This document shows positions 59,773 to 64,000 of a DNA stretch of 64,000 nt, piece by piece; position 1 is the stretch's first letter; each line of letters starts with the position of its first letter. The stretch comes from Escherichia phage 4E10. The notes under the pieces are model-generated. The model searched no databases and was not told where the DNA came from. It saw only the letters and a list, made by a program, of their open reading frames with translations. The DNA lies in the sequence record OQ689735.1; one strand, given 5' to 3'. The translations under genes were made by a program, and so were the position numbers.

Positions 59773-60032
59773 ATACTGGCTTCTTTGAGTTTCGTTTTAG
59801 CAATAGTTAACTGATCGAGGCTTTCAGCATAATTCTTTGCGAATTCATAGTCTTCACAATTATCTAGTGCTTCCCAGAATTCGTCATATAAAGCGTCAAA
59901 GATAAGTCCTAAACGAACTTCAGCATCTTTGATAGCATTCACTTTACCGATTTTCTCTTCAGTATGTGGCTTATAACCCTTAATGTCTTCAATCATATTT
60001 GACTTCCTCACCAGTACATAAATCGTATTCAA
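59730..60032 (-). CDS. hypothetical protein (vs.4 position; possible Acb2-like)
   Basis: 100-aa ORF; start may be internal (MIEDIKG); function by position only. Confidence 0.4.
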
Positions 60033-60210
60033 CTAAACGAATAGGTTCATGAATGCCATATCCCTGAACAGAAATTTCTGTCGTAGGATAAATTCCACTA
60101 ATATCACCCATATTCCACGCTTCATTAAATTGCTGTTCGCCTGAATTACTAAACCATTCTGCGAAAGCATTTAGCACATCTTTAGAACCTTCAATAATTA
60201 TCTTTGCCAT
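59989..60210 (-). CDS. small hypothetical protein
   Basis: 73-aa ORF. Confidence 0.45.
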   Translation of the reverse strand: MAKIIIEGSKDVLNAFAEWFSNSGEQQFNEAWNMGDISGIYPTTEISVQGYGIHEPIRLVEYDLCTGEEVKYD

Positions 60211-60572
60211 TACAGACTCTCAGTAAAGGTACGAGCAATAACGTCGCGCTGCTGTTCCGGAGTCAGAGAGTTAAAGCGAACTGCATAACCGGATACACGG
60301 ATGGTCAGCTGCGGATATTTTTCCGGATGCTTAACTGCATCTTCCAGAGTTTCACGACGCAGAACGTTAACGTTCAGGTGTTGACCACCTTCAATTTTAA
60401 CTGTAGGTTGTGGCTCAATTTCAATTTCACGGGCATGCAAACCATAGAAAATTTCTGGGTCTACAAAAGAGTCCTCTTTAAAGGTTTTAGAGACAATAAT
60501 TCGTGCTTGAATACCATCTTCAAAATAAATAGTACCTTTATGTGTGCCTTCAAGAATTTGATATGCTTTCAT
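60210..60572 (-). CDS. GrcA/YfiD-like autonomous glycyl-radical cofactor
   Basis: 120-aa ORF; C-terminus [25 protein letters not shown] matches the glycyl-radical motif; visibly GC-richer, host-like codon usage. Confidence 0.7.
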
Positions 60573-60579
60573 ATAAACC

Positions 60580-60960
60580 TCAATTAGAAAATAAATTTAT
60601 CCAAGATTGTTCTTTAATTAAAAATGGCTCAGAATCATATGCCATTAAACTTTGCGTAATTAATCCTTTAAAAGGTCCATCAATAAATTCCATGGTAAAA
60701 TATGGAATTTTATTCATTAGCCGTGCATTAGGAGCAGTGCACAAAACTCTGCATCCTTTGAATACGCCTTTTTGTAATTTGTATTGCTTGGGATAAAATT
60801 CGCTCAAAATGTTATTATTTGCCAAAATTTCAAAATGATTTACCAATTTATTTTTAATAGTTTTTGGCGAAAAATAAAGATATTCGAAAAGCTGTGTATC
60901 TGTCATCATTGCATTCCGATTACGAAAAACTGCGGACGAGTAATACCACCAATGCAACAT
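60580..60960 (-). CDS. hypothetical protein
   Basis: 126-aa ORF. Confidence 0.5.
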
Positions 60961-61445
60961 TTACTATTACAGCAGTAGTGTACAGTGTCAATATGGACAC
61001 TATAAATCTTATCCATATCAGGAGATTTGACAGGCTCATCAATTATATACAAAATTCGCGAAAGCGATAAACCTCTGAACTTGCTTCCTTTATTACCAAT
61101 AAAACTGCGCACAGAATCAGTAAATAAACGAAAACGTATATCATCATTAGAATAACGCGAAAATTCCTTTTTGATGTTATTTGCAGAAATTTTAGCGTAA
61201 GCTGAAGTATTAGAAAGAACAATAACTGTTCCGCCATCATACAGCCAATTAGCAGCAAAGTTAGTCACAGCAATTGATTTGCCGGATTGACGTCCACCAT
61301 CTATGCGAAGTGTGCAGTACTGTTTGAGTAAGTCTTCAAATGGCGGGGTATATTCGTTTTTACAAATTTCTTCTACTCTAGCATCAGAATGGTGTGTAAA
61401 AGCATTCATCAGGGATAGATAAGGACCAGTTAAAAATGTTCTCAT
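60906..61445 (-). CDS. P-loop-containing hypothetical protein
   Basis: Track ORF 60906..61493 trimmed to ATG after GAGAGAA (MRTFLTG...); GGRQSGKS P-loop-like. Confidence 0.45.
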   Translation of the reverse strand: MRTFLTGPYLSLMNAFTHHSDARVEEICKNEYTPPFEDLLKQYCTLRIDGGRQSGKSIAVTNFAANWLYDGGTVIVLSNTSAYAKISANNIKKEFSRYSNDDIRFRLFTDSVRSFIGNKGSKFRGLSLSRILYIIDEPVKSPDMDKIYSVHIDTVHYCCNSKCCIGGITRPQFFVIGMQ

Positions 61446-61586
61446 TTTATTCTCTCTAAATTTGGGCCATTCCGTGGCGCATGAATTGTCCATTTCTGTA
61501 TTTACCCATTACCGCACTCAGGCTCGACCTTATTACAGGTTGGCGGGAATCCCTCACAAAATCATGAGGTCCAGGTTGTTCCCATA

Positions 61587-62060
61587 TTATTTGAATGATT
61601 TGACGTACTGAATAGAACCTTTACTATTCACAAAGGCAATTTTACCATTTTTGTTATACATGGTAGCAGTACGCTGATAGCCATAAGTTTGTTTACCAGA
61701 TTGATAACCAACTAATGCAAAATTATCTTCGCCCATTTTATTCTGCTTAGCGCGGATACGTTCATGACCGTGCGCCATAAGAACCTTAGCGTCGCCAGTT
61801 GCAATGGATCTACGAGTTTTTTCATCTTCAACTGTATTAACAAAGTCGTCAAATGAATCAAATTTAGCATGAGATTTATTATACAGTTTTCCATCTACTG
61901 CATAATTATATCCCTGTACATCCATCTCAACTTCTGTACCATCATCCAATACAGCAGTGATTTTTTGACCTTTTTTAAATTTCAAAAGATCAGTAAAAGA
62001 TTCAGCAATAATTTGAGAATTAATAGCTGCTTCAGTAATAAATTCTTGATATGTTTTCAT
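61587..62060 (-). CDS. head internal protein (IP family)
   Basis: 157-aa ORF; N-terminus MKTYQEFITEA is the IP capsid-targeting sequence. Confidence 0.7.
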   Translation of the reverse strand: MKTYQEFITEAAINSQIIAESFTDLLKFKKGQKITAVLDDGTEVEMDVQGYNYAVDGKLYNKSHAKFDSFDDFVNTVEDEKTRRSIATGDAKVLMAHGHERIRAKQNKMGEDNFALVGYQSGKQTYGYQRTATMYNKNGKIAFVNSKGSIQYVKSFK

Positions 62061-62069
62061 ATGTTTCCT

Positions 62070-62486
62070 TTAAATGTAAATATTTTTACCGTAATACTTG
62101 TACCAATGTGGTTTCATTAAAATTTTTTCATCAAGTCGTTGTTGACTCAATTTAATAGCTGATTTGCATGGATTATAATCATTTTTCCATTCTGCTGGAA
62201 TATCGCTGATGTCAGGAACTTCAGTATCTTTTATACTAAACCCGCGTTTTAAGCATTCCGTTATAATGTCTGATTGACGCTTTCGCAAAAATTCTAACTT
62301 ATCGTAAAAGAAAGTAACATGACCAGAACCTAAAATAAACTCGGAAGATATTTTAAAATCTTTAACCCGCTTACCATTTGCCACATGTTTACGAACTATA
62401 CCAAAAACACGCGGCAATTCACGGTATTCTGCGATTAAATGTTGATCAGCAAGTTCAGATACTAAAGTCAAATTAATACGAGTCAT
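62070..62486 (-). CDS. denV: endonuclease V (pyrimidine-dimer DNA glycosylase)
   Basis: 138-aa ORF; matches T4 DenV ([17 protein letters not shown]...). Confidence 0.9.
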
Positions 62487-62545
62487 TTTATCCCTCCAAG
62501 TAACTGTGAATATACTATCACAATTCTAGGAGAAAGTAAACAACT

Positions 62546-63076
<531 letters not shown>

Positions 63077-63532
63077 TTAAAAGAGGTTGTTCATTATTCG
63101 GTAAAGTGAAGGACCCATCACATATTGCCACTGAGTACGAGGAATAAGAGCAAAAGCGTCCATCTCTGGAATCATAACGCCATCTTTATTTTCAAAATAA
63201 GACTCGCAGCGGCAATTTCTAAACATCTCATGCTCTACTGGAATCGTATAGTAAAATAGCTGTAAGTCTTTATTACTAGAATATTTAAATACACCTAGAT
63301 CTTCTAGAAGGTCTGGATTATAATTGCTAAAACCGGTCTCTTCTAAACATTCTCTTCGTGCTGCATCTAATGCGCTTAAATCAGAATTTTCTACACGGCC
63401 CTTTGGAATATCCCAGCGATGTGCCATCATTCCAGGCTTACGAGAACCAGTAACTCGTCCCATAAATAGGTCTTTATCTTCTGTCATAAAGATAATACCA
63501 GCTGATAATGTTTTCATTTTAATTTCCTGCAT
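63077..63532 (-). CDS. nudE: Nudix hydrolase
   Basis: 151-aa ORF; Nudix box GRVENSDLSALDAARRECLEETG; start may be the internal ATG near 63517. Confidence 0.8.
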   Translation of the reverse strand: MQEIKMKTLSAGIIFMTEDKDLFMGRVTGSRKPGMMAHRWDIPKGRVENSDLSALDAARRECLEETGFSNYNPDLLEDLGVFKYSSNKDLQLFYYTIPVEHEMFRNCRCESYFENKDGVMIPEMDAFALIPRTQWQYVMGPSLYRIMNNLF

Positions 63533-63912
63533 TCAGTGATAAAGTTATTTAAATTTTGAGTATATTTCTTTTCATCAAAAATCTTTTGCTGCCTACGTAA
63601 CCGCCATGGCATTTCAATGAACATGTACCATATTCCTGATAGTATTGCTGCTGTAAAAATATTAACAAGTATGGTTAAAAGAGCCCAATCTCCTATTCTA
63701 TCCATTGGATTTTTTATAAAAAAGTAAAACACAAACGATGATATAGGAAGACTAATGATATACCACAGAATCATAATCTTATTTGTAAACCAATCAGCAT
63801 TTGTTAACTTAGCGCGACCGTTTTGAATACATACGAACTTATCATCTGTTATAGTAGATGGCTTAGCTGCTTGATATCCCATTCTAAACTCCCTAATCAA
63901 CAAATTTTTCAT
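63514..63912 (-). CDS. membrane protein (e.2 position)
   Basis: 132-aa ORF with two hydrophobic helices. Confidence 0.5.
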   Translation of the reverse strand: MKNLLIREFRMGYQAAKPSTITDDKFVCIQNGRAKLTNADWFTNKIMILWYIISLPISSFVFYFFIKNPMDRIGDWALLTILVNIFTAAILSGIWYMFIEMPWRLRRQQKIFDEKKYTQNLNNFITECRKLK

Positions 63913-64000
63913 ATCTTCTGAACAACCATTCCAGTCAACTCTATCAACTGAAATGCCATCATCCCCATCATCTAAATCATACCAGCGAGTTTTTAAAATC

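Follow-up and report, generated by a model that had tools for sequence, protein, structure and literature searches.

Between the internal virion protein gene ip4 and the vs.8 gene of Escherichia phage 4E10 (sequence record OQ689735.1) lies a 141-nt gap, positions 61446-61586 of the 64,000-nt stretch that was analysed and is called the window below. Comparison with other phage genomes has shown that this gap holds a covarying and widespread non-coding RNA element on the gene-sense strand. The initial annotation had offered three options for the gap: a structured leader, a small RNA or a remnant of acquired DNA. Covariation, together with conservation in phages that are unrelated to one another, gives strong support to a structured RNA, whether leader or small RNA; the option of an acquired remnant was not sustained. 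Our favored reading, held at roughly even confidence, is that the element belongs to an uncatalogued family of phage structured RNAs and would act in its own right on a conserved host component.

Covariation and parts of the element

BLAST returned 1,001 phage records with the whole gap as query and 1,038 with the 56-nt core alone, and pattern scans added 34 viral and 32 metagenomic loci, resulting in 72 distinct versions (L numbers below designate individual loci). In a MAFFT alignment of the core from 35 distinct versions, 88.7% of the cells were paired, compared to at most 47% with slid partners. The pair flanking the core was standard in every version (AU21/UA5/CG4/UG4/GC1), and pair 29-36 of the mini-hairpin Pb was CG28/GC2/UA2. 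Alignment of 50 distinct sequences to a covariance model (A4) gave 89.2% paired against at most 46.8% when slid, six pairs with double-sided changes (a number reached by 1 of 500 shuffles) and a covariation score of 0.187 against 0.076 (0 of 500), the shuffle figures being counts. The core-adjacent pair of the closing helix (columns 10-44) was AU28/UG8/UA7/CG5/GC1 in this alignment with one version unpaired (n=50), and Pb pair 29-36 was CG42/UA3/GC2.

For the 18 T4 relatives that carry the "type B" version (A3), the whole model including a pseudoknot was 96.1% paired against at most 47%, and the outer-helix pair 8-55 read GC14/CG3/AU1 with none unpaired. The search pattern left the covarying positions unspecified. 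Read from the opposite strand, the frequent G.U pairs (UG 8 at 10-44, UG 11 at 61-100) would turn into A.C mismatches, which identifies the minus strand, the gene-sense one, as functional. The parts of the window copy are as follows.

61464-61583, minus strand: whole RNA element, made of a 5' domain, a core and a T4-type 3' domain; its extent follows conservation against T4 (where the gene upstream is denV) and the 72 distinct versions
61545-61583, minus strand: 5' domain; outer helix GGGAA (61579-61583) / UUCCC (61545-61549) enclosing a 9-nt internal loop and an inner hairpin
61552-61569, minus strand: inner hairpin, CCUCAU (61564-61569) / GUGAGG (61552-61557), loop GAUUUU
61499-61550, minus strand: core, comprising closing helix, Pa, CGA, Pb and GGUAA; match to covariance model R1 at 68.7 bits, E 3.9e-19
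61506-61543, minus strand: closing helix that brackets the core junction, CCA (61541-61543) / UGG (61506-61508), 4 nt after the 5' domain
61527-61540, minus strand: hairpin Pa, ACCU-GUAAUA-AGGU
61514-61526, minus strand: junction CGA (61524-61526) and mini-hairpin Pb, GCC-UGA-G(U)GC (61514-61523), 3 bp
61509-61513, minus strand: single-stranded GGUAA that joins Pb to the closing helix, invariant in alignments A2 and A4, though part of the search pattern
61466-61503, minus strand: 3' domain peculiar to T4 relatives, with the terminal hairpin GCCA (61475-61478) / UGGC (61466-61469), loop CGGAA

From the ip4 stop codon it is 4 nt to the start of the element, and from its end about 20 nt to the vs.8 ATG. 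The R1 core match was the sole element hit in the window, the next score being 10.6 bits, and a 19-nt stretch of the core occurred once in the window against 0 occurrences expected even with 3 mismatches.

The 5' domain had the same architecture with unrelated helix sequences in 19 representatives, ending 3-5 nt before the core. Thus GGGG/CCCC stands with CACAU/AUGUG in rV5, and GGAAC/GUUCC with CUACG/CGUAG in the second rV5-like group (L052); further outer helices are GGGAG/CUCCC, CGGG/CCCG, GUACC/GGUAC, AAAGG/CCUUU, AAAGC/GCUUU and AAAGA/UCUUU. Compensatory variants of the inner hairpin also include GGCG/CGUC, CAUG/CAUG, CUUAC/GUAAG and CCUUAU/AUAAGG (L073).

The closing helix changes in concert between L085 and L077, from GCGCUA/UA(A)GCGU to GCGAUA/UA(A)AUCGU. 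Pb is found as GCG/UGC, GCG/CGC, GUC/GAC, GGC/G(U)CC, GGC/G(C)CC and GCA/UGC. Pa has the family consensus ACCU-GUAAYA-AGGU and is invariant in all pattern-collected copies, partly by construction; the divergent second copy of Edwardsiella phage PEi20, which was found with the model, reads GCCU...AGGC, a compensatory exchange of A-U for G-C, with Pb as GUC/GAC. GGUAA has one exception, GGCAA in the second copy of L006 (Klebsiella phage UTI-K1, Jiaodavirus). The 3' domain is kept in both "type A" and type B T4 relatives and is absent in rV5-like and other lineages, which have other 3' hairpins. In most T4 relatives, and in most of the lineages, nucleotides of the 5' loop can form a pseudoknot with the 3' tail; in the type B alignment its pairs are CG11/AU4/GC3 (14-110) and GC11/CG7 (15-109), with none unpaired (n=18). 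The element is a conserved, aptamer-like structured domain, with a covarying junction fold and about 25 near-invariant nucleotides.

The Pa loop GUAAUA would match the hexaloop of 23S rRNA helix 44, and GUAA and GGUAA are reminiscent of T-loop-like motifs; both likenesses are tentative leads. A likeness to the 3' end of 16S rRNA (GUAACAAGGU) was dropped, as it was a post hoc match to a 10-mer only, with 9/10 in the window and a shuffle p of 0.23.

The 4E10 locus and other carriers

The window is part of a Tequatrovirus (T4-type) genome, with RB14/ime09-type phages as its nearest relatives; a 451-nt query around the gap matched 689 phage records at 80-100% identity. The genes of the region, including the gap at 61446-61586, follow one another on the minus strand.

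62546-63040, minus strand: e
62070-62486, minus strand: denV
61587-62060, minus strand: ip4, internal virion protein gene directly upstream of the element (PF24183, E 6e-96; PHROG 3155 "internal virion protein"; annotated Ip4 in RB14)
60906-61445, minus strand: vs.8, directly downstream of the element; 179 aa from MRTFLTG, a P-loop-like protein (PHROG 1488)

The gap had been placed upstream of the likely vs.8 start, and it is in fact the exact interval from the ip4 stop to ATG 61445 of the 179-aa vs.8. The hairpin reported there as CCTCA-N8-TGAGG is present at 61552-61569, where the minus strand pairs CCUCAU with GUGAGG and includes one U.G pair, and the open reading frame (ORF) said to enter the gap is a 195-aa frame from an upstream ATG at 61493. 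The gap is indeed GC-rich, at 45.4% against a window mean of 34.5%; calling it much richer than the rest overstated the case, as about nine places equal or exceed it. Among 141-nt windows (sd 4.3%), 0.9% are as rich. The highest GC peak of the window, 50.4% at 60245-60385, lies inside vs.6 (60210-60572), whose product has a glycyl-radical-like motif at its C-terminus and is annotated as pyruvate formate-lyase-like in some records. Scans for sigma-70 promoters and intrinsic terminators around the gap found no site inside it and counts equal to shuffled expectation; no promoter or terminator consensus flanks the element in the window, and no terminator was found in 60800-62600.

The T4 relatives matched included the Tequatrovirus, Mosigvirus, Jiaodavirus, Gelderlandvirus, Roskildevirus and Kanagawavirus types. 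Outside them, rV5-like Vequintavirus genomes matched at 90-95% identity over about 45 nt in unannotated gaps, and the element was also found in 130-148 kb Vibrio phages, the 45-kb coliphage Ivi and metagenomic contigs. A nucleotide search of host genomes, one of the checks proposed, gave no match in 5,426 E. coli genomes (20,395 records), and the helices are under purifying selection; the remnant idea is not supported. In 185,579 bacterial and archaeal species genomes the core pattern had a single dubious match, at 28 bits on an 8-kb metagenome-assembled contig. The element is therefore a feature of virulent phages rather than of hosts or prophages.

All enterobacterial T4 relatives examined have at least one copy directly upstream of vs.8, whichever gene precedes it (denV, ip4 or others), and the element begins within 5 nt of the preceding stop codon. 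Homologues of vs.8 were found in 1,009 records, all from enterobacterial T4 relatives. Klebsiella phage UTI-K1 (L006) has two copies, type B at 2024-2075 and type A at 2546-2597, which flank an internal-protein-like gene. The second Jiaodavirus copy has the T4-type 3' domain and lies 40 nt upstream of an ip gene; such flanking copies may also serve as homology for the shuffling of ip cassettes. PEi20 (L088) has two tandem copies between denV and vs.8 (1225-1446; cores 1273-1324 and 1386-1435), and its annotated vs.8 start (1447) looks too far upstream, as does that of T4 discussed below. In the 288,685-bp record of Klebsiella phage vB_Kpn_AM_K4 (L005), a type B copy near the record end (2440-2640) has a broken 3' domain and no vs.8 after it; this oversized Straboviridae record may be a chimeric or concatenated assembly.

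The constant position upstream of one gene class, which holds for vs.8 in enterobacterial T4 relatives, fails across lineages. Outside the T4 relatives no neighboring protein family common to the lineages was found, nor any vs.8/ORF74 similarity. Many of these copies lie in or beside tRNA clusters, on the same strand as the tRNA genes (rV5-like phages, L049, L069, L087 and L038). Both rV5-like groups have it about 550-600 nt upstream of the cluster; in L087 it follows the last tRNA by about 45 nt, in L049 and L069 it lies within the cluster, and in Vibrio phage F90 a tRNA is 1.2 kb away. Since a cluster with 1.3-kb margins makes up a few percent of such genomes, this proximity is, on a rough estimate, unlikely to be due to chance.

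Other copies look like units of their own. In L047 a TTGCGG-17-TATAAT promoter lies about 15 nt upstream, and the downstream side has two intrinsic terminators but no ORF; in L067 there is a TATAAT promoter, and the gene that follows the element is convergent; and in L054 the element ends in a stem and U-run. A promoter and terminator of its own were seen for the copy in L047, in part for those in L067 and L054, and not in the window. In Ivi (L039) the element lies between the endolysin terminator and a TTGACA-17-GATACT promoter.

Four further observations were made around these copies. In Ivi (~2055-2165), just after the element, a strong intrinsic terminator (CCCGGC...GCCGGGAUUUUUUUUU) stands no more than about 100 nt beyond the promoter; a 38-codon frame is the sole annotated ORF there, and this unit is possibly another small RNA. 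The otherwise unrelated L047 (43 kb) and L067 (39 kb) have the block CUCUAGCYUCGARAUGU.G.A.GU.ACGGC in common at +55 to +100 from the core, and in these two the RNA may be longer. The second rV5-like group (L052, L051, L064 and L071) has a ~25-nt motif, CCC(U/A)UAGAGGGCUUGA(U/A)AGUGC, on both sides of the core at about -60 and +55, and rV5 has it upstream of the element only; it may be a phage-specific promoter or terminator, or mark the ends of an inserted unit. The tRNA cluster of rV5 (L004, 3582-3680; also L019, L059, L065 and L081) includes a 99-nt "tRNA-???" called by ARAGORN with a four-base anticodon (atcc), which scores as a weak tRNA in Rfam (35.5 bits) and may hold an intron or be frameshift-suppressor-like.

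Readings of the element's role

We favor an RNA that works in its own right because the junction is near-invariant across phage families that have no neighbor gene in common, and because placement with tRNA genes or in a unit of its own recurs. Conservation is independent of the neighbors: the element follows denV in T4 and ip4 in the window. In a T4-type phage the element would be transcribed within the early polycistronic ip4-vs.8 RNA and would work there as a folded RNA, as it seemingly does in phages with stand-alone or tRNA-cluster copies. The ~25 near-invariant junction nucleotides would bind a putative partner identical in all hosts, perhaps a tRNA or the translation apparatus, and the element would not be a controller of one particular gene.

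More tentatively, the element may represent a new class of functional RNA common to unrelated virulent gammaproteobacterial phages, T4 among them. Its near-invariant pseudoknotted junction would then make direct contact with host machinery of universal occurrence (tRNA, ribosome, RNase P or RNA polymerase), or the element would be a new ribozyme or aptamer. If so, T4 would gain its first RNA of this kind after RNAs C and D. A nearly unchanged fold in more than 1,000 genomes with no common neighbor genes implies a strong common selective pressure, and the element is a ~120-nt, easily testable object in the best-studied virulent phage, which is genetically tractable.

Several points weigh against this reading. 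The minimum free energy (MFE) of the single sequence was no better than that of shuffles (z = +0.22), with no excess stability on either strand, and the MFE folds of 23 representatives were mutually inconsistent. The pseudoknot, 3 bp in the type A version that the window carries, had no support there (shuffle p 0.70); its support across lineages was only modest (Fisher p 0.008, on curated loops and hand-picked pairings), and an unsupervised search on MFE-derived loops was not significant. Most homologues beyond those from BLAST were gathered with a pattern that demanded the core, so the invariance of Pa, CGA and GGUAA is in part by construction; common descent of the sequences also means that the shuffle counts should not be read as probabilities. 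The classical surveys of stable RNAs in T4 are not known to have reported more than tRNAs and species 1 and 2, and release of a discrete RNA in T4-type phages is something we purely infer. Finally, the copy upstream of vs.8 in every enterobacterial T4 relative examined, kept despite a highly plastic upstream region, fits a cis role at least as well.

Such a cis role could be that of a vs.8 leader, in which the folded element, possibly bound by a ligand or protein as a riboswitch or translational operator, sets the amount of Vs.8 produced from the early polycistronic transcript. Besides its constant place before vs.8, this would account for the similar record counts of the element and of vs.8 homologues and for the T4-type 3' hairpin ending about 20 nt from the vs.8 start, and the many invariant junction nucleotides and the pseudoknot are aptamer-like. 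However, no clear expression platform could be recognized. The vs.8 Shine-Dalgarno sequence and start codon are left unpaired by the 3' hairpin GCCA/UGGC, and possible alternative pairings, through a duplicated CAACCUG word, were spotted by eye only. Jiaodavirus has the same 3' domain 40 nt before an ip gene, several copies lie inside tRNA clusters, and what follows the element outside the T4 relatives is an unrelated gene, no gene at all (L047), a convergent gene (L067) or a gene with a promoter in between (rV5, Ivi). We consider a leader for vs.8 unlikely on this balance.

The element could also act in cis on the transcript itself, as a self-cleaving ribozyme or RNase processing signal at which polycistronic or tRNA-cluster transcripts would be cut, as a nuclease-resistant stabilizer of neighboring RNA, or as an antiterminator that modifies RNA polymerase, like HK022 put. 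It always lies in the same sense between genes or tRNAs, is separated in T4 relatives by no more than 5 nt from the stop codon before it, and is duplicated around a gene in Jiaodavirus and in tandem in PEi20. The L047 and L054 copies, between promoter and terminators, have the layout expected of an antiterminator, and small pseudoknotted junction folds rich in invariant nucleotides are typical of ribozymes. Set against this, none of the Rfam models for ribozymes, put or other cis-regulatory families matched, no cleavage site could be deduced, and the convergent gene downstream in L067 argues against antitermination there. We regard a transcript-level role as rather doubtful.

A protein-coding reading, in which the gap encodes the N-terminus of a longer Vs.8 or a separate 33-aa protein in 4E10, has very little probability. 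The T4 record (AF158101; L003, 4254-4913) annotates vs.8 as 219 aa from an ATG within the element, its first 40 codons (MRDSRQPVIRSSPSAVMGKYRNGQFMCHGMAQTYRAYREE) being encoded by the homologue of the gap, which in T4 directly follows denV and not an ip gene. Annotated lengths are inconsistent: Hafnia phage IsaacDaniel has 179 aa, RB14 (L001, 2107-2676) 189 aa and T4 219 aa, and mechanical ORF calling yields 195 aa (60906-61493) in the window; the extra N-terminal residues derive from the RNA element. The corresponding frame in the window is the following.

61456-61557, minus strand: 33-codon GTG ORF (MRDSRQPVIRSS...), homologous to the first 33 codons of the T4 219-aa Vs.8 and judged to be no gene

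This ORF ends in TAG out of frame with vs.8; in T4 the two frames are joined by an 8-nt insertion. Its GTG start (ATG in T4) sits in the inner hairpin, without a Shine-Dalgarno sequence, and the L073 variant CCUUAU/AUAAGG abolishes it. Only one frame (..PVIRSS..) runs through the core of every version without a stop, which would favor coding. Against this, the frame lacks an ATG, GTG or TTG upstream of the core in more than 30 versions, among them all rV5-like phages, Ivi, the Vibrio phage and Jiaodavirus copy 1. Even within Tequatrovirus the "start" varies between ATG, GTG and ATA, and versions with a Pb shorter by 1 nt read TAA within the invariant GGUAA. The end of the frame varies from +25 to +163, with fusion to vs.8 in T4 only. 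Conservation is at the nucleotide level, third positions included, and substitutions are pairwise compensatory.

PHROG 1488, a 177-position profile, matches residues 3-179 of the short Vs.8 (E 2e-79) and so begins at the short start. The possibility that the gap is simply the coding N-terminus of Vs.8, which would have overturned the RNA interpretation, is itself refuted: start, frame and stop are not conserved, and the profile begins at the short start. Because the frame fails as a gene and the profile begins there, the 219-aa Vs.8 of T4 is over-extended, and the family profile supports the 179-aa form. The 40-codon extension would be a by-product of one frame happening to stay open through the element, and the T4 entry and the inconsistent starts of its relatives should be corrected to 179 aa.

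Inert DNA with no role as RNA, be it an acquired host or foreign remnant or just a scar left by recombination next to the variable internal-protein cassette, is highly improbable. The GC content above the phage background, the position bordering a region in which T4, RB14 and 4E10 arrange their genes differently, and the duplicates that flank the ip gene in Jiaodavirus would suit it, but with no match in E. coli genomes, one dubious match among the species genomes, and a near-identical core in unrelated phage families with compensatory helix changes not expected of inert DNA, it is largely refuted by covariation.

Comparison with known RNAs

Among the 4,227 covariance models of Rfam 15, none hit the element, with the threshold set at E<=10 for the window and at E<=5 for the versions of rV5, Ivi, Vibrio phage F90, AM_K4 and Cronus. 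ARAGORN found 0 tRNA or tmRNA genes in 60000-64000, and at the other loci only genuine tRNAs flanking the element. The core sequence was in none of the papers of the literature searched, and the region goes unmentioned in the T4 reviews and omics papers found. According to a 2010 review, T4 had yielded no functionally characterized riboswitch or trans-acting small RNA, and the roles of RNAs C and D were unknown (PMC3014915); a dual-omics paper on T4 mentions only RNAC and RNAD. A bulk screen of IMG/VR lists 8,495 unnamed candidate structures (PMC10690425); the element may be among these, and novelty is claimed at the level of the RNA family.

The closest precedents within T4 are species 1 and 2 (rnaC, 139 nt, and rnaD, 119 nt), which are likewise phage-encoded, non-coding, about 120-140 nt long and of unknown function. 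They keep company with tRNA genes on the same strand, as the element does in rV5-like, Vibrio and several metagenomic phages. They have no sequence similarity to it: blastn-short gave only chance words of 8-16 nt, and model R1 found nothing in the T4 tRNA/rnaC/rnaD region (L029). The element is also far more widespread, and in T4 relatives it lies between protein genes, about 5-8 kb from the tRNA cluster.

Riboswitch aptamers and structured leaders such as the T4 gene 32 pseudoknot operator resemble the element in having a multi-helix junction, many invariant unpaired nucleotides and a pseudoknot, and in T4 relatives the element is, like them, directly upstream of one particular gene. It differs from them in showing no clear expression platform and no Rfam match, in its copies within tRNA clusters, and in the unrelated, absent or convergent downstream genes of other lineages. 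The HK022 put RNA, a processive antiterminator that binds the polymerase, is similar by position only, as a small phage RNA structure between promoters and terminators (as in L047 and L054) that would act without a protein-coding partner. In contrast to the element, put consists of two simple stem-loops, with no sequence or model match, and the L067 copy faces a convergent gene.

Small self-cleaving ribozymes (hammerhead, twister, pistol and hatchet) are comparable in size (~50-120 nt), in combining a junction and a pseudoknot around a conserved core, and in being scattered between phage genes with no fixed gene partner, sometimes in several copies. None of their signature cores occurs in the element, and their models gave no match at E<=10. 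Lastly, the PeSL cassettes that Arbiol and colleagues are said to have described in 2010 reportedly consist of an early promoter and a simple stem-loop and are limited to some T4-type phages. They would be similar as repeated non-coding cassettes that border variable genes, as the Jiaodavirus copies border the ip gene. Unlike them, the element has no promoter consensus in the window, folds into a complex covarying structure, and occurs in unrelated phage families.

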